In this document: piece after piece, positions 20,503 through 39,346 of the stretch
Layout of the letters: every line of letters starts with the position of its first letter
Position numbering within the stretch: the stretch's first letter is position 1
NCBI GenBank assembly: GCA_051648945.1
Contig: JBOFGC010000414.1
Span: 1 to 43,965 of the forward strand
From: Bacilli bacterium
GTDB lineage: Bacteria > Bacillota > Bacilli > JBOFGC01
Reading direction: 5' to 3'
Length of the DNA stretch: 43,965 nt
Translations under genes and position numbers: made by a program
Notes under the pieces: generated by a model
What the model saw: the letters and a program-made list of their open reading frames with translations, nothing else
Told to the model about the DNA's origin: nothing
Databases searched by the model: none

Positions 20503-20510
20503 TATAAATA
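20503..20510 (+). promoter_or_regulatory. T4-type late promoter TATAAATA for gp24
   Basis: Exact TATAAATA 46 nt upstream of the ATG at 20557. Confidence 0.65.
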
Positions 20511-20523
20511 CCATTAGTATATT

Positions 20524-20531
20524 TATTTATA
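20524..20531 (-). promoter_or_regulatory. T4-type late promoter TATAAATA for the Ig-domain gene
   Basis: Plus-strand TATTTATA reads as TATAAATA on the minus strand, 34 nt upstream of the ATG at 20489. It sits back-to-back with the plus-strand box. Confidence 0.6.
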
Positions 20532-22223: not shown

Positions 22224-22248
22224 AAAGGAGCCTTCGGGCTCCTTTTTT
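22224..22248. terminator. Bidirectional rho-independent terminator
   Basis: AAA-GGAGCC-TTCG-GGCTCC-TTTTTT between convergent genes. Confidence 0.85.
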
Positions 22249-24398: not shown

Positions 24399-24420
24399 GA
24401 AGCGCCAATCAAGGCGCTTC
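24399..24420 (-). terminator. Hairpin, possible terminator
   Basis: GAAGCGCC-N6-GGCGCTTC followed on the minus strand by ACTATTTTAT. Confidence 0.45.
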
Positions 24421-24429
24421 TTGTATTTA

Positions 24430-24723
24430 TTACCAAATAACGTTGATAGTAAAGCGATTATTTGTTTCTGTTTGAGAAACTGAGAATCCCTCTTCTCGTA
24501 GTTTGCTGATGATCTGTTCGAGGTAGTGATTTTCTTCTACCTTAATCGAGCACACACAACAAGAAGCGGGTTCGTCTGCGACTGCCGACACTTCAATGCG
24601 CGCGTAAATTCGAGCCACTGCATTATCTACAATTTTTCGTTGATTCGCTTTCATTAGATCGCGAATCTGATCCGCTTTCTTACGATGAGGATTAGCACAA
24701 AATGAATCTATTCGACGGGACAT
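24430..24723 (-). CDS. Hypothetical protein (97 aa)
   Basis: ORF lying 2 nt downstream of the ATP-grasp gene's stop. I recognise no family. Confidence 0.5.
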   Translation of the reverse strand: MSRRIDSFCANPHRKKADQIRDLMKANQRKIVDNAVARIYARIEVSAVADEPASCCVCSIKVEENHYLEQIISKLREEGFSVSQTETNNRFTINVIW

Positions 24724-24725
24724 TA

Positions 24726-25943
24726 TTAATCTTTCTCCACTACATGAGGAATAAAACGTGAGTTATTTTGGGTGATGCAAGTGTCATCTTCACGAATGCC
24801 AAGCGCGACTGCATCTTCTCCTACCATCCATACACCGAGCATCGGGTATTTACCATCGATAGGTTCCCATTCGATATACTTCTGAACGACCCAGCCGCCG
24901 TCATCATATTCGCCTTGACTTGAGGCGACTTCGGTCATGTTGTTGTAATCGATAATCAGTATATTCGAACCTTCACGAGAAAGCAATGGTTTATGTACCC
25001 ATTTGCCTTGTAGTTCGCCTGATTCTGCCCAAGTGACCGCTGTCTCGCCAACAAACGCAGGGACTAAGTTTTCACAATGTGGGTGACGTTCCCATAACAA
25101 AGCAAGTAACGCTTTATTAGAAAGCAACATTTTCCACGATGGTTCAATCCACTGAGTGTCTGATTTGCAAATGTGCTCGCCGAATGCGTCATCGAACATC
25201 CACTCCCATGGATACAACTTGAAGCACGCGTCGATTTTGTTTTCGTCTGGGTCTGTGAACTCAACGCCATTCCAACCAATCTGATCCATAGGAATAGTAA
25301 CTGCATCGATTCCGGCTTGCGCTGCAAGATCTGCCATGTAGCAAACAGTAGAGAAGTCGTCTACTTGATCAAATGCTGCAAAGTGTACTTTATTAGGGAC
25401 CTTGTTGTATTTGCTGTGTAAGTCTTTCCAGTGACGAATCAAAGAATCGTGTAAATCGTTAAACTGGAACGTACTCGGAGGAAATACGCCGGATTGTTGA
25501 TTCTCAAAGAACCACTGCCACTGAGTTAACCCTGTTTCGATCAACGTAGTAGGAGTATCTGCGTTGTATTCTAGTAACTTAGGCACGCCATCCTGCATAA
25601 CGAAATCGAAGCGACCATACACGGCCCACTCGTCATCCTCCCACGAATCGATGATATGTTGACGAGCTTCTTCTGGGATAAAGAATAAATCGAACCATTT
25701 GTTGCGTACCGCTGTTGGAGCGATTTCCAGTAACCACGTGATTGATTCTAGCGCTATACAATGAATCGTGTTGCCAGCGTGCTCCAGAGCTTCCTGCTCG
25801 GTTTGAGTGAGGCTATAGTAAACCGGTTGCTCCATAGCTTCGTTCCAATATGGACCATTTTCGGTAGTAGACCACATTACACCATGTTCGATTTCTACGT
25901 TTTCTTTCCAGTTTTTACGAGCCGCGATTGGTAAACGTTTCAT
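24726..25943 (-). CDS. Glutathionylspermidine-synthase-family ATP-grasp protein (YgiC/YjfC-like)
   Basis: End-to-end similarity to E. coli YgiC as I recall it (RFDF......PKLLEYNADTPT, KLYPWEWM, WIEP.WK...SNKALL.LLWE..P.. NL.PA, KP..SREG.N, GIRED....TQN.SRF.PH). Confidence 0.85.
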   Translation of the reverse strand: MKRLPIAARKNWKENVEIEHGVMWSTTENGPYWNEAMEQPVYYSLTQTEQEALEHAGNTIHCIALESITWLLEIAPTAVRNKWFDLFFIPEEARQHIIDSWEDDEWAVYGRFDFVMQDGVPKLLEYNADTPTTLIETGLTQWQWFFENQQSGVFPPSTFQFNDLHDSLIRHWKDLHSKYNKVPNKVHFAAFDQVDDFSTVCYMADLAAQAGIDAVTIPMDQIGWNGVEFTDPDENKIDACFKLYPWEWMFDDAFGEHICKSDTQWIEPSWKMLLSNKALLALLWERHPHCENLVPAFVGETAVTWAESGELQGKWVHKPLLSREGSNILIIDYNNMTEVASSQGEYDDGGWVVQKYIEWEPIDGKYPMLGVWMVGEDAVALGIREDDTCITQNNSRFIPHVVEKD

Positions 25944-25952
25944 TTTATTTCC

Positions 25953-26528
25953 TTATGATGCTGATGAACCACGAGCGGAGGCGCTGAAACCACCACGTGT
26001 TGATACTGCCGCGCGAGTAGACGAAACCGTTGCAACGCCGGGACGAGCTGTCGCTGTTGAACGACTCAGGGACGACTTGCCAAATGCTGCGCCATTGCCT
26101 GATGCTGTTACCATATGACCGCGCATTGAACCGTCTTTGTCGCGTCGTGCGTCGCTCATGTATAACGGACGAGACGATGCTTGTGCGTTGTTAATATTAG
26201 ACGAGATATTTCCCATCATGTAACCCATCATCATGGGCATCCACATACTGGTAGTTGTTCCGTCTGAGTTTTTGATTTCTTGTCGTGTGCAAGAATCGCC
26301 AAACTGAGCCGAGCATTGGGTGTTATCTTCGAACTTGGGCGCAACGTCTTGATGCATTTCTTGCGCGACTTTGAATTGCATCTCACAGTAGGGAAAGTCC
26401 ATACCTGCCGCTACACACTCGTCGATACTGCGAGCCGACAGTACATCGACTCGTTCTTCTTGTTCGCATCCGGTTAACGTCAGTGCAACAAACGTTGCCA
26501 TAATACCAGACTTTAACGTTTTGTTCAT
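25953..26528 (-). CDS. DUF1190/YgiB-like lipoprotein
   Basis: Signal peptide with lipobox LTLTG|C. Shared motifs with E. coli YgiB include C..QFGDSC (YgiB: C.AEFGEGQC), MWMPMMMGYMMG (YgiB: FWMPLMAGYMMG) and a C-terminal TRGGF. It lies directly upstream of the YgiC-like gene, as in the enterobacterial ygiBC pair. Confidence 0.75.
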   Translation of the reverse strand: MNKTLKSGIMATFVALTLTGCEQEERVDVLSARSIDECVAAGMDFPYCEMQFKVAQEMHQDVAPKFEDNTQCSAQFGDSCTRQEIKNSDGTTTSMWMPMMMGYMMGNISSNINNAQASSRPLYMSDARRDKDGSMRGHMVTASGNGAAFGKSSLSRSTATARPGVATVSSTRAAVSTRGGFSASARGSSAS

Positions 26529-26540
26529 TTCAATTATTCC

Positions 26541-27023
26541 TTATTTACGAAAATGCACTGGCGATGTGTGACGTAGAACGCCCACAAAATATTCCTTCGA
26601 GTTCGCGATGTTTGTCTTTTCCATTTCTTCGTGTAGTCGTAGGCGCATGCTGTTAGCTAAGTATTGAAGCATAATGCGATAGCCGGGGGTTTTCATTCCA
26701 TTGTTCGCGTCGACCATTTCCTTCTCCTCTGAAATATCAGTGAAGTGTGGATTCAAACGAAAATGAGGATAATCGTTTTTGTAATAAGTCTCGATATATT
26801 CGCGCATATGTTCGAAGCTGAAAGTAGTGATTTGTTTACCTTCATGGCGATTCTTCGTTGTCTTGAACGTGCTTCCATCGGTCACGACAATAAAATCCGA
26901 AATCTTCAAATATGTCATCACACTAGAGCAACGATACTCGCCTTCGCGATATTCCGCAGTTGGACCAGTGAACATACGGCCAGCGATGCAATACATAGTG
27001 GTGTGTGGTTTGAACTTTTTCAT
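26541..27023 (-). CDS. Hypothetical protein (160 aa)
   Basis: First ORF of the minus-strand operon, with a GGAG SD. I recognise no family. Confidence 0.5.
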   Translation of the reverse strand: MKKFKPHTTMYCIAGRMFTGPTAEYREGEYRCSSVMTYLKISDFIVVTDGSTFKTTKNRHEGKQITTFSFEHMREYIETYYKNDYPHFRLNPHFTDISEEKEMVDANNGMKTPGYRIMLQYLANSMRLRLHEEMEKTNIANSKEYFVGVLRHTSPVHFRK

Positions 27024-27090: not shown

Positions 27091-27119
27091 ATTGTATATA
27101 TCGTTTTCTAAGAAATCAA
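27091..27119 (-). promoter_or_regulatory. Sigma70-type promoter candidate (TTGATT-17-TACAAT)
   Basis: On the minus strand, TTGATT lies at 27119-27114 and TACAAT at 27096-27091, in the divergent intergenic region upstream of 27023. Confidence 0.4.
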
Positions 27120-27129
27120 GAGGTTTTTA

Positions 27130-28635
27130 ATGTGTGATATCACAATTTTAGCTCAAGACTTTTCGTTCGTTAAAGTTGAAGCTGATTATAACATAATTTG
27201 CGAAATGCGCGACTACTTTTCGTTTGAAGTTGACGGCTACAAATTTAATCCGCGTTTTCGCGCGGGGTTCTGGGACGGCAAGATTCGTCTCATGGAGCTG
27301 GATGGTACACTACCTGTCGGTCTCGTGTCAATGGCTAAAATGTTTGCATCTAACATGGATTATGAAATTTCTATCGATCCTCGTCTAGATGTTAAGCCTC
27401 AGTTAACACGAAGTGAATTCGACCAGTGGGTAGGCAGTTTAGATATATACGCTGGCAATACTAAAATCGACCCTCACTGGTATCAAGGCGATTCTGTTTT
27501 TCATGCTATTAACAAACGTCGAGCTACATTGAACTTGCCAACGTCGGCTGGTAAATCTCTGATTCAAGCATTATTGAGTCGCTGGTTCTTAGAGAATTAC
27601 GAAAGTAAAGTATTAGTTATCGTTCCCACAACATCACTCGTTAATCAAATGCAAGACGACTTTGTTGATTATCGTTTGTTCCCTCGACAAGCTATCGGTC
27701 TAATGGGCGGAGGCAAGAAAAACTTTTGCTCGCCTGATTCTGTTGTTGTTGTGAGTACATGGCAGACTGCTGTTAAGCAATCACCGGAGTGGTTCAAGCA
27801 ATTCGGTATGTTGTTAGTTGATGAGTGTCACTTATCTACAGGCAAATCGATTTCTACGCTTGTTAAAAATATGCGTCACTGTGAGTACAAGTTTGGTCTG
27901 TCTGGATCGCTGAAAGACGGCAAAGCTAACGTACTACAATATATCGGGATGTTCGGTGATGTATTCAGGCCAGTCGATACTGCGAAATTGATGGAAGATG
28001 GACAAGTCGCTCAACTCGAAGTTAAGTCCGTGATGATCAAGTATCCAGATGAAGAATGTGCTAAATATTCTAGTCTAGACTACGCACAAGAAATAAAAGT
28101 AATCACGAACCATAAAAAGAGAAATCTTTGGGTGTGTGCTTTAGCTCAGAAATTAGCTCAACGGGATGAAAACGTGTTACTTCTATTCAAGCACACAGCT
28201 CACGGTAAGATGATGTATGACCATTTGAAAGCTAAGTACGGCGACAAAGTGCATTACATCTCAGGCGAGACGAAATCGGAAACACGTGTTGCATTAAGAG
28301 GCACTGCCGAAAATGACACTGGACTTATTATCGTCGCATCGTATGGCGTACTGAGTACCGGTGTTTCTATTAAACGTTTGCATCACTTAATATTCAGCCA
28401 TCCGATCAAGTCAAAAGTTACCGTGTTGCAGTCGATTGGTCGTGTTCTGCGTAAGCATGGCACCAAGACGGAAGCTATTGTATGGGATCTATGTGACATA
28501 CTAGCACAGCGCACCAAGACCGGCGCAAAGAATCCGTACAAGAAAATCAACTATGCGTTCAAACATGCGTTAGAGCGAATTAAACGTTACAACGAGGAAA
28601 AATTCTCGTATAAAATTATTAAGGTAGAGTTATGA
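27130..28635 (+). CDS. uvsW: UvsW RNA-DNA/DNA helicase (SF2)
   Basis: Collinear with T4 UvsW (DFS.V....., FSFE.DGY.FNPRFR...WDG.IRL, PHWYQ.D.VF....RR..LNLPTSAG.SLIQALL, DECHL.TGKSIS, GLSGSL.DGKAN..QY.GMFG, IIVASYGV.STG.S.K.LHH, LQ.IGRVLRKHG.KT). SD is AGAGG. Confidence 0.95.
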   Translation: MCDITILAQDFSFVKVEADYNIICEMRDYFSFEVDGYKFNPRFRAGFWDGKIRLMELDGTLPVGLVSMAKMFASNMDYEISIDPRLDVKPQLTRSEFDQWVGSLDIYAGNTKIDPHWYQGDSVFHAINKRRATLNLPTSAGKSLIQALLSRWFLENYESKVLVIVPTTSLVNQMQDDFVDYRLFPRQAIGLMGGGKKNFCSPDSVVVVSTWQTAVKQSPEWFKQFGMLLVDECHLSTGKSISTLVKNMRHCEYKFGLSGSLKDGKANVLQYIGMFGDVFRPVDTAKLMEDGQVAQLEVKSVMIKYPDEECAKYSSLDYAQEIKVITNHKKRNLWVCALAQKLAQRDENVLLLFKHTAHGKMMYDHLKAKYGDKVHYISGETKSETRVALRGTAENDTGLIIVASYGVLSTGVSIKRLHHLIFSHPIKSKVTVLQSIGRVLRKHGTKTEAIVWDLCDILAQRTKTGAKNPYKKINYAFKHALERIKRYNEEKFSYKIIKVEL

Positions 28636-38157: not shown

Positions 38158-39053
38158 TAAAAATCTCCACGTGCGCATTGGAAAACTTTCAGACCTTTCT
38201 TACGCCACATGTCGACAACTTTCTGACGATCATCAAACACGCCCATGATATCGAATCGTCCTAGACCCGCGTGTTCAAAAAGCTCATCTTTCACGATATC
38301 ATCTGAGCGCCAGTCGTCGTTTTCGCGCATGAACAAGAAATCATAACTAACACAATGCATATTCAACCAAGCGATGGTGTCTTCCTGTGCAGCTTTGGTG
38401 CGACCACTCATGATTGCGATTGTATGTCCTGCGGCATGCAATGCATTGACCACATGAATCACATTTAGATCTGACTCGTCATTCAGTACCGAAGTCATAT
38501 CAAATGGATTACGACCATGCATATGTGCAAGTGTGCCGTCGATATCAACAATATACATTTGACCCATCGGATTAGCAGGACGAACGTAAGGAACAGGCAA
38601 CCAGTAATTCACTTGCTCTGGGAAGTTCGTTTCGAATTTTTCGATTTGACGACGAATTGCTTCCTCTGGAATATGACAAACACGACGAGCATTACGTTTT
38701 AGTGCGTCGGCGAGTGAAATCGGGAAGTACACAACTTCAAATTCCGCTTTATGGCTTTTTGCAAAATCTCGCCATTTTTCCCAATCGCTAGGATTCAGGT
38801 TAGTGTCAGAAACGATGATGCTATTACCAGAAGCGAGTGACCAGATAGCTCGTGTGTTCTGAATAATCGTAACGTCTTTCTCTGTTTGTTTGTTGAATTT
38901 ATATTCGAGTAAAGATGGAAGCTTTGTTACTTCCAAACGAATGTCGTCTCGGTTCAGATTAACGAAAGAAGGATTCTCTTTCAACAGCTCCATCGCGTAT
39001 GTTGTTTTACCGGCAGACGATGCACCGACAGTCAAAATTACTTTCTTGCTCAT
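38157..39053 (-). CDS. pseT: Polynucleotide 5'-kinase/3'-phosphatase
   Basis: Collinear with T4 PseT: a P-loop G.S.AGKTT (T4: GCPGSGKST), NRDD.R, SDTNLNP, the phosphatase motif DIDGTLA (T4: DVDGTLA), SGR, DDR..VV.MWR..G...(W/F)Q.A.GDF at the C-terminus. There is an ATGA overlap with the upstream stop. Confidence 0.93.
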   Translation of the reverse strand: MSKKVILTVGASSAGKTTYAMELLKENPSFVNLNRDDIRLEVTKLPSLLEYKFNKQTEKDVTIIQNTRAIWSLASGNSIIVSDTNLNPSDWEKWRDFAKSHKAEFEVVYFPISLADALKRNARRVCHIPEEAIRRQIEKFETNFPEQVNYWLPVPYVRPANPMGQMYIVDIDGTLAHMHGRNPFDMTSVLNDESDLNVIHVVNALHAAGHTIAIMSGRTKAAQEDTIAWLNMHCVSYDFLFMRENDDWRSDDIVKDELFEHAGLGRFDIMGVFDDRQKVVDMWRKKGLKVFQCARGDF

Positions 39054-39346
39054 TTCACACACTCCTGTAAATTGCAGATAATCACGCGTTGCTTTTCGAT
39101 ATACGATGCAAGCTTCTCTAACCACTGACGATGCTTAATGCTGTCGTCGTAACTAAGTGAGATGTATACTACATCATCCTTTTCTTTCTGTATAGTACTT
39201 TTTGTAATTACTTTCCATTTCACGTTCGCGGGTTCAACAGCAGCGGGCAAAGGATAGTTCACCCGCTTCAACTCGATATGTTGATTTGTTGTACAACCGG
39301 AAAGTAATACTAATGCCAACAGGATGGATCGTTTCCGGTAATGCAT
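39050..39346 (-). CDS. Outer-membrane spanin subunit (o-spanin, T4 PseT.2 position)
   Basis: Lipoprotein signal with lipobox LLSG|C. It is 98 aa, and its 5' end overlaps the preceding TM/coiled-coil gene by 37 nt. It lies adjacent to pseT, as do the T4 spanins. Confidence 0.75.
   Translation of the reverse strand: MHYRKRSILLALVLLSGCTTNQHIELKRVNYPLPAAVEPANVKWKVITKSTIQKEKDDVVYISLSYDDSIKHRQWLEKLASYIEKQRVIICNLQECVK

Follow-up and report, generated by a model that had tools for sequence, protein, structure and literature searches.

The stretch of DNA analysed here (the window) covers positions 1 to 43,965 of contig JBOFGC010000414.1 (assembly GCA_051648945.1) and is part of a T4-like phage. On its reverse strand lie two adjacent genes, one for a lipoprotein of the DUF1190 family (YgiB/YjfM-type) and one for an ATP-grasp ligase of the YgiC/YjfC type. 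We studied the two proteins, their inheritance and their neighbourhood, with particular attention to the RGGF(G) tail that closes the lipoprotein. The genes and the motifs on which the argument turns are the following.

25953..26528 (-): DUF1190 (YgiB/YjfM-type) lipoprotein gene, 191 amino acids (PF06693, E=9.8e-28)
26466..26528 (-): signal peptide and lipobox, MNKTLKSGIMATFVALTLTG followed by Cys21, read from the sequence
25986..25997 (-): RGGF motif, residues 178-181, followed by the 10-residue Ser/Ala/Gly-rich tail SASARGSSAS
24726..25943 (-): YgiC/YjfC-type ATP-grasp peptide-polyamine ligase gene, 405 amino acids (PF03738, E=2.5e-112)
25563..25613 (-): catalytic motif R111-x-D113...E125-x-N127 (GRFDF...LLEYNADTPT), from the alignment to GspS

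The ligase and its lipoprotein partner

The ligase matches PF03738 (GSP_synth) over profile positions 2-371 of 371 (376 bits for a cut-off of 29.3) as well as PHROG 6215 (“glutathionylspermidine synthase”, E=4e-130), and it carries the motifs LLEYNADTPT, KLYPWEWM, SNKALLALLWE and GIREDDTCITQNNSRF. It is 35% identical to E. coli YgiC (E=1e-75), 34% to YjfC and 25% to GspS. Among PDB structures, YgiC (7UK8, E=8e-68) and YjfC (7UK6, E=1e-63) align with it from end to end, while only the synthetase parts of GspS (2IO7, E=1e-19) and trypanothione synthetase (TryS, E=5e-27) do so. The protein is a single synthetase domain without an N-terminal CHAP amidase, and it scores 103.5 bits against NCBIfam NF007801, the equivalog of the bifunctional GspSA, for which the cut-off is 882. 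Seven of its residues (R111, D113, E125, N127, K277, K318, R323) align with GspS R316, D318, E330, N332, K498, K533 and R538, which we take to be the Mg2+, ATP and acyl-phosphate residues; all seven are conserved, and the counterparts of R316, D318, E330 and N332 are invariant in GspS, YgiC, YjfC and the window ligase. No signal peptide is present, and the enzyme is predicted to be cytoplasmic and to require ATP.

Many GenBank phage records label this ligase “glutathionylspermidine synthase”, a label that is probably wrong for the phage genes. Both E. coli ygiC and yjfC are named “peptide--spermidine ligase” in RefSeq, and Pederick et al. reportedly described in 2023 the peptide-spermidine ligase activity of YgiC and YjfC. 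A 2025 review on TolC (PMC11762307) likewise gives them this activity, lists their physiological substrate as unknown and states, after Sui et al. 2012, that they are devoid of glutathionylspermidine synthetase activity. The initial annotation of the locus, which considered the substrates unclear, is thus still right about the physiological peptide, but not about the reaction, for which an activity is on record in that review.

The lipoprotein covers profile positions 7-156 of 159 of PF06693 (97.9 bits, cut-off 22) and matches PHROG 3739. It is 26% identical to E. coli YgiB (E=2e-13), with the lipobox, the Cys pairs, the Met-rich segment and TRGGF collinear, and 20% identical to YjfM. Given its 74.3 bits against NCBIfam NF008655 (the YgiB equivalog, cut-off 223), it is best classed as a member of the DUF1190 family and not as a YgiB orthologue. 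Its motifs are the lipobox LTLTG-C, CSAQFGDSC, MWMPMMMGYMMG and TRGGF, and the residue at position +2 of the lipobox is Glu, as in YgiB, lipidation being a prediction only. In the alignment A4, C21, C38, C48, C72, C80, P98, G102 and G180 are invariant, so that the core combines four conserved Cys with a conserved W-x-P Met-rich segment.

An AlphaFold2 (AF2) model of the lipoprotein, computed with a 21-sequence alignment, shows a core at residues ~31-105 and 119-140 (predicted local distance difference test, pLDDT, 61-83), in which the Met-rich stretch forms beta-strands, whereas the last ~45 residues are predicted to be disordered; the tail should therefore be accessible. A transmembrane helix in the Met-rich segment, which would make the tail cytoplasmic, was considered and rejected, since the segment has only ~12 hydrophobic residues, is modelled as beta-strands and is missing altogether from the short partners of other phyla described below. 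Foldseek found no structural relative of the DUF1190 core in the PDB (best E=0.45), and the sole significant match in a viral structure library is a sequence homologue. As for its bacterial relative, YgiB is predicted to be a lipoprotein of the outer membrane and is induced by Cpx in Citrobacter rodentium (bioRxiv 10.1101/2021.12.13.472529), and its level rises 3-4-fold in a tail-specific-protease (tsp) mutant (PMC13435647).

All this bears out much of the initial annotation, as the two open reading frames (ORFs), their positions and every motif quoted there are present as described, and the assignments to DUF1190 and to the YgiC/YjfC ATP-grasp enzymes are upheld by the profile searches (PF06693, PF03738, PHROG 3739 and PHROG 6215).

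Co-inheritance and the RGGFG tail

The genes for the ligase and the lipoprotein are co-inherited. Across the 60 loci where both are found, the distances between ligases and those between partners are correlated in a mirror-tree comparison (Mantel r=0.75), a value reached by 0 of 2000 permutations, and the correlation is r=0.80 once the phage clade is left out (again 0 of 2000). Moreover, the six nearest neighbours of the window are the same loci for the ligase and for the partner, and DUF1190 precedes the ligase in 11 of 11 sampled phage-clade loci, even though genome positions differ and small ORFs are sometimes inserted. Hence, the earlier view that the two proteins travel together and probably act together agrees with the data; conversely, the observations named at the time as fatal to it, a lipoprotein outside DUF1190 or unrelated origins of the two genes, were looked for with profiles and trees and neither was encountered.

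In a neighbour-joining tree of 127 ligases (374 columns, 200 bootstraps), the window ligase belongs to a 37-member clade (100% bootstrap) with uncultured T4-like contigs, Aeromonas T4-likes and Lahexavirus, in which every member of known genomic context (11/11) is phage-borne. This phage clade falls outside the gammaproteobacterial YgiC/YjfC clade, the deep nodes of the tree being unresolved (bootstrap at most 35%). Among cellular ligases, the closest are those of Verrucomicrobiota, Acidobacteriota, Bacteroidota and Planctomycetota (36-45% identity), among cellular partners those of Gammaproteobacteria (34-38%), and enterobacterial YgiB proteins reach at most ~32% identity to the window lipoprotein. 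Because identity to cellular proteins does not exceed ~45% for the ligase and 38% for the partner, and because the clade is phage-only, the pair would have resided in phages for a long time without recent capture from a host. By these sequence distances, its acquisition by phages is old. The initial description of a phage copy of ygiB-ygiC was accordingly correct as to the families, but a recent host copy does not fit a ligase that sits in a fully supported phage clade outside YgiC/YjfC. No cellular donor can be named, owing to the poor support of the deep nodes and to the fact that the nearest ligases and the nearest partners belong to different phyla. The ligases of phages RSL1 and Motura group together (99%), while those of OC and DSS3_VP1 group with proteobacterial sequences; since they stand apart from one another, several independent acquisitions by phages are likely.

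What is conserved in the partner is mainly its end. When small ORFs located upstream of ligases in very different sources were aligned (alignment A1, including two Verrucomicrobial proteins without a Pfam match), no columns were invariant except the lipobox Cys and the GG of RGGF(G), which correspond to G179 and G180 in the window. We then surveyed 92 ligase loci (12 from phages and 80 from bacteria of many phyla) for a same-strand upstream ORF with [RKS]GG[FYW] in its last 35 residues. Such an ORF is found at 68 of the 92 loci, as opposed to 18 of 5306 other reading frames (0.34%). Most of the 24 exceptions have a close variant of the motif in the upstream ORF (HGGFG, RSGFG, RGGLG, TGGFG); among the others, an SRGGFG protein is encoded ~3 kb away on the other strand in three, the upstream part is cut off in two and one has nothing. 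The motif reads RGGF in 55 of 60 partners and is followed by G in 57 of them. The number of residues after it has a median of 11 (interquartile range 9-12), 69% of these residues being Ser, Gly or Ala, and the last one is Ser or Gly in 52 of the 60. As far as sequences can tell, this constrained length and the Ser/Gly end fit the geometry that a docking site combined with an acceptor at the C-terminus should have.

A signal, lipobox or anchor is present at the N-terminus of all partners examined. The partners of Verrucomicrobia, Bacteroidota and phages RSL1 and Motura have no Cys/Met domain, while retaining the lipobox and the tail. Pfam DUF1190 would then be the long proteobacterial and phage form of a broader family of secreted RGGFG-tailed partners. 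No description of the RGGFG tail was found in the searchable literature, a scope that does not extend to the primary biochemical study and thus makes priority uncertain. The N-termini of the partners are also unusually uniform across phyla (M-K-[KR]-S-x-x-[IV]-x-L-V-L..., then the lipobox), more so than generic signal peptides are, and might serve as a leader-like element for recognition. In Verrucomicrobia, DUF350 and DUF4178 genes flank the ligase, besides a short RGGFG lipoprotein (Nibricoccus sp., locus L010, 7239..10288; locus L011, 7675..9423); therefore, the operon core reaches well beyond Proteobacteria.

Transcription unit, genome context and occurrence in phages

In the window, the pair occupies the middle of a four-gene unit, whose other features are listed below together with the gene that faces it.

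27130..28635 (divergent, upstream of the unit): UvsW helicase gene
27091..27119 (-): sigma-70-like promoter candidate TTGATT-17-TACAAT, 9/12 matches in a consensus scan, a consensus match only
26541..27023 (-): ORF160, first gene of the unit, no family match
24430..24723 (-): ORF97, last gene of the unit, no family match
24399..24420 (either strand): bidirectional GC-rich hairpin terminator found by scan, 8-bp stem with 6 GC pairs and a T-rich tail

The unit thus runs from the promoter candidate, in the 106 bp that separate ORF160 from the divergent uvsW, through ORF160, DUF1190, the ligase and ORF97 to the terminator, which divides it from the inh-like gene. The ligase gene starts 9 nt downstream of the DUF1190 gene, and the gap (GGAAATAAA) holds AAGGA, which is Shine-Dalgarno-like. 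The initial annotation had seen in this order and spacing a mirror of bacterial ygiBC, which is true of the gene order and the tight coupling, whereas the 9 nt resemble without equalling the 5 and 2 nt of the E. coli pairs. It had also proposed an early-type operon. Along with the promoter-like site and the terminator, no T4 late-promoter motif (TATAAATA) was found near the unit by a motif scan, and an early, host-polymerase-dependent transcription unit is plausible as far as consensus matches go. In the whole 44 kb, only three TATAAATA motifs occur, no more than expected by chance, two of which face each other between divergent genes (20503-20510, forward strand, and 20524-20531, reverse strand).

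The two outer genes of the unit were considered as members of the module and rejected. Neither matches Pfam, NCBIfam, PHROG or PADLOC; ORF160 has only weak similarity to loci of related phages (L004, E=0.08; L006, E=4e-4) and ORF97 has no tblastn match in them. Since they lack families and are not conserved in related phages, the functional core is taken to be the pair of DUF1190 and ligase. PADLOC gave no match, which leaves a role in anti-phage defence unsupported, and this role was rejected. Members of the bacterial operon other than the pair were searched for by phmmer among all ORFs of the window (queries YjfI, YjfJ, YjfK, YjfL, Band-7, K+ channels, homospermidine synthase and SprT), and none matched at E<=1; PspA, CesT/Tir, DUF350, DUF2491 and channel genes were not detected in the 44 kb either.

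Downstream of the unit, on the same strand, follow genes for an Inh-like prohead-protease inhibitor, an HD phosphohydrolase and a DprA-like protein. A second perfect bidirectional GC-rich hairpin terminator lies at 22224..22245 and, with that at 24399..24420, bounds a block made of the Inh-like, HD phosphohydrolase, 109-amino-acid ORF and DprA-like genes. Further away, an ORF of 98 amino acids (39050..39346, reverse strand) resembles a lipoprotein (MHYRKRSILLALVLLSG followed by CTTNQ...) that has no relation to DUF1190; it might be a spanin or an exclusion-type lipoprotein. As UvsW is 57-61% identical to its best cultured relatives (T4-likes of Serratia, Citrobacter and Cronobacter) and a megablast of the locus against 50,697 phage records returned no close DNA relative, the phage is divergent, uncultured and Straboviridae-like. 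A peptide-pattern scan of IMG/VR with the ligase yielded no close relative.

The pair is not new in phages, where it has long been annotated and where PHROGs families exist for both proteins, the window pair being a divergent member. ORF093c and ORF096c of phage 44RR2.8t were published in 2003-2006 and tabulated in 2006 (PMC1524935), while a “YgiB-like lipoprotein” of phage Moon was noted in 2015, with no role assigned (PMC4319498). A tblastn search of deposited phage records gave 138 with the ligase and 43 with DUF1190. Versions of the pair are known from no fewer than six phage lineages, and the loci looked at hold the following:

Aeromonas T4-likes (44RR2.8t, 25, 31 and further phages): DUF1190 preceding the ligase in the neighbourhood of tk/rI, and a Band_7 lipoprotein besides
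Lahexavirus (LAh_8): K+-channel pore protein, DUF1190, ligase
Acinetobacter T4-likes: near the ligase, a DUF1190 match that is weak yet significant (gp007, 23.3 bits, cut-off 22)
Ralstonia RSL1 and Achromobacter Motura: short lipobox and RGGFG protein directly upstream of the ligase, to which Motura adds a homospermidine synthase
Ochrobactrum phage OC: complete DUF1190, SprT-like protein, then ligase
Roseophage DSS3_VP1: K+ channel adjoining the ligase

Several of these loci thus show members of the bacterial operon beside the phage pair, namely Band_7 (44RR, L101), a K+ channel (LAh_8, L103, DSS3_VP1) and homospermidine synthase (Motura). In Motura (L096, 318..4128), a substrate-binding protein (gp276), the homospermidine synthase (gp275), the lipobox and RGGFG protein (gp274) and the ligase (gp273) stand in a row, a direct link of the module to polyamine synthesis within the phage, which suggests that homospermidine may be the amine there. 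In three unrelated phages, the immediate neighbour of the ligase or of the pair is a K+-channel protein (DSS3_VP1, L097, 2002..4161; LAh_8, L003, 3076..3450; L103, 4074..4436), one of these proteins having a TVGYGD filter and a C-terminal domain and two being pore-only Ion_trans_2 proteins, an echo of the bacterial operon. In phage vB_OspM_OC (L095, 1981..4161), p241, with its SprT-like metallopeptidase domain, separates the lipoprotein p242 (...SRGGFGARAISVAG) from the ligase p240; it might process the tail as a protease, or be there by coincidence.

Other phages depart from the usual arrangement. The LAh_8 ligase (L003, 4001..5209) is annotated as two coding sequences (gp032, 338 amino acids, and gp031, 59 amino acids), which suggests a frameshift or a stop near the C-terminus in that isolate, the ligase being one tblastn piece in its sister phages LAh_6, LAh_9 and 4_4572. 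In Pseudomonas phage vB_PpuM-Amme-3, a divergent ligase (25% identical to that of the window) has, ~550 nt upstream of it, a lipobox protein (L098, 1482..2117) that is very rich in Met in one segment and has a Ser-rich tail with GG at its end, but no RGGF; this protein may be a degenerate or alternative partner. Finally, Escherichia phage A4 (L100, 3956..4507) has a YgiB-like lipoprotein with the tail TRNGFGSS...; phages of enterobacteria that carry the lipoprotein only may rely on the YgiC or YjfC of their host.

Proposed role and comparison with known systems

We consider it reasonably probable that the ligase and the lipoprotein form a functional unit acting on envelope or polyamine homeostasis early in infection, because phages keep this two-gene core while they shed or swap the rest of the membrane-stress operon. 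The pair would be an accessory cassette long maintained in T4-like and some other phages, with both genes co-transcribed, probably from a host-type (early) promoter, and functioning as a unit. Its bacterial counterpart belongs to a membrane-stress and polyamine operon with PspA or Band-7, a K+ channel and DUF350. By homology, the ligase would activate the C-terminal carboxylate of a peptide as an acyl-phosphate and amidate it with spermidine or a related polyamine. Its partner would be a lipoprotein exported by the Sec and Lol pathways, composed of a small Cys/Met-rich periplasmic domain and of a disordered tail, i.e., RGGF(G) plus ~10 small residues.

It is possible, though we hold this much more tentatively, that the RGGFG-tailed secreted lipoprotein is itself the physiological substrate of YgiC/YjfC-type ligases and is C-terminally amidated with spermidine before export. 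The tail is the best candidate peptide in that it is disordered, lies at a fixed distance from a docking-like motif and has a small last residue, which by analogy may resemble the Gly end of glutathione. The ligase would dock on the RGGFG of the partner precursor and polyaminate its C-terminus before or during export, after which the envelope lipoprotein, now with a cationic tail, would change how the envelope or its channels behave during infection. Should the tail not be the substrate, the lipoprotein may instead be the envelope-side component of the same pathway, with the ligase acting on another peptide.

Several points weigh against this reading. The main obstacle is topology, as the partners are extracytoplasmic and the ligase cytoplasmic, which opposes a simple enzyme-substrate relationship; the modification would have to precede or accompany Sec export, and we know of no precedent among lipoproteins for such a pre-export modification. 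The same topology was overlooked in the initial suggestion that the enzyme modifies a periplasmic substrate, which does not suit a ligase that has no signal peptide and needs ATP, next to a secreted partner. The last residue of the partners shows some variation (S, G, E, A), the confidence of the AF2 lipoprotein model is modest (mean pLDDT 56) and the early promoter is assigned from a consensus match alone. The two genes do not always occur together either, since Escherichia phage A4 has the YgiB-like lipoprotein without a ligase nearby, Citrobacter phage Moon has it without a ligase (PMC4319498), and the ligase lacks an RGGF partner in DSS3_VP1, Pseudomonas Amme-3 and Bacillus PK-3. In addition, ligase activity is reported for the E. 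coli proteins only (as cited in PMC11762307).

A partner that is always secreted and a ligase that is cytoplasmic could also be coupled indirectly, the lipoprotein being a periplasmic metal or envelope-stress sensor or scaffold, and the ligase conjugating spermidine to an unrelated cytoplasmic peptide or metabolite, e.g., to keep free polyamines or thiols buffered while phage DNA is synthesised and packaged. On this view, another envelope component (such as DUF350 or a channel) would use the RGGFG tail as a contact or sorting motif. The four invariant Cys and the Met-rich segment fit the term “metal-chelating lipoprotein” applied to DUF1190 (Ravi et al. 2024, PMC11237479), the ygiB deletion strain is sensitive to peroxide and slightly so to copper (bioRxiv 10.1101/2021.12.13.472529), homospermidine synthase adjoins the ligase in Motura, and some phages have only one gene of the two. 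Nevertheless, this explanation, the main rival but one that we deem rather unlikely, accounts neither for the retention of the RGGFG tail, instead of the Cys/Met domain, wherever the ligase occurs, nor for the narrow range of distances between the motif and the C-terminus.

Exclusion is a common function of phage-encoded lipoproteins, Llp of T5 for instance, and the lipoprotein of the pair might similarly be a superinfection-exclusion or receptor-masking effector, with the ligase as an accessory modifier or dispensable. Phages Moon and A4 do retain the YgiB-like lipoprotein alone, the genes appear (by prediction) to be expressed early, and E. coli ygiBC adjoins tolC, a known phage receptor (PMC11762307). 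Yet there is no direct evidence for such a role, outside phages the same pair is widespread in many phyla as a housekeeping-type module, and the ligase is kept in all 11 sampled phage-clade loci, all of which makes exclusion improbable. Still less credible, indeed very improbable, is a genuine glutathionylspermidine synthetase whose product would protect thiols during infection. The Pfam family name GSP_synth, the label in many phage records and the acyl-phosphate and Mg2+ residues common to the ligase and GspS speak for it, but the ligase is closer to YgiC than to GspS, both in identity to the E. coli proteins (35% vs. 25%) and in PDB E-values (8e-68 vs. 1e-19), it remains far below the GspSA equivalog cut-off (103.5 bits vs. 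882), it has no amidase domain, and YgiC and YjfC are without such activity according to the review (PMC11762307).

The phage pair as such is ordinary, one more divergent example of a module annotated in dozens of phage genomes. Its interest lies in the near-universal RGGFG tail, a candidate that can be tested as physiological substrate of YgiC and YjfC, the identity of which is listed as an open question in the 2025 TolC review (PMC11762307). Were the tail indeed the substrate, a C-terminally polyaminated envelope lipoprotein would be a previously undescribed modification, and several phage lineages would deploy it early to change the charge of the envelope, its channels or stress signalling. 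Should the module affect the integrity of the envelope, efflux or polyamine pools, it could also be relevant to the way in which T4-like phages condition Gram-negative hosts.

Among known systems, YgiB-YgiC and YjfM-YjfC of E. coli (PDB 7UK8/7UKA and 7UK6/7UK7) combine the same two Pfam families in the same order and with the same tight coupling as the window pair. The lipobox, the four Cys, the W-x-P Met-rich segment, the RGGF tail, the catalytic residues and the amidase-free ligase are common to all. The E. coli pairs differ in their spacing (5 nt for ygiB-ygiC and 2 nt for yjfM-yjfC, vs. 9 nt in the window) and are distant in sequence, with identities of only 35% and 34% for the ligase and 26% and 20% for the partner. 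Unlike the E. coli loci, the window has neither a tolC neighbour nor yjfIJKL genes, and its tail after RGGF counts 10 residues, vs. 24 in YgiB.

The closest phage systems are the Aeromonas T4-likes (44RR2.8t ORF096c/ORF093c; 25, 31, Aes012 and phiAS4), which share the fully supported ligase clade of the window with 52-55% ligase identity, followed by Lahexavirus LAh_8 (gp033/gp032), in the same clade with 43% ligase identity and DUF1190 upstream of the ligase. In the Aeromonas phages, the pair lies in the tk-rI region, whereas it lies between uvsW and inh in the window. Moreover, the Aeromonas T4-likes have a Band_7 lipoprotein and a small pilin-like protein in addition, the LAh phages have a K+-channel pore protein, and several phages of both groups have small ORFs between the two genes, where the window has the 9-nt gap.

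Beyond phages, a bacterial operon has been described with PspA/Band-7, K+ channel, DUF350, DUF1190, DUF2491 and the ATP-grasp ligase (Ravi et al. 2024, PMC11237479); of its roughly seven components, the window has two, the core of DUF1190 and ligase. Finally, GspSA and trypanothione synthetase have the same ATP-grasp superfamily fold and the same residues for acyl-phosphate chemistry as the window ligase. In comparison with GspSA, the latter has no CHAP amidase, is 25% identical and falls below the equivalog cut-off, while its closest characterised homologues do not use glutathione.

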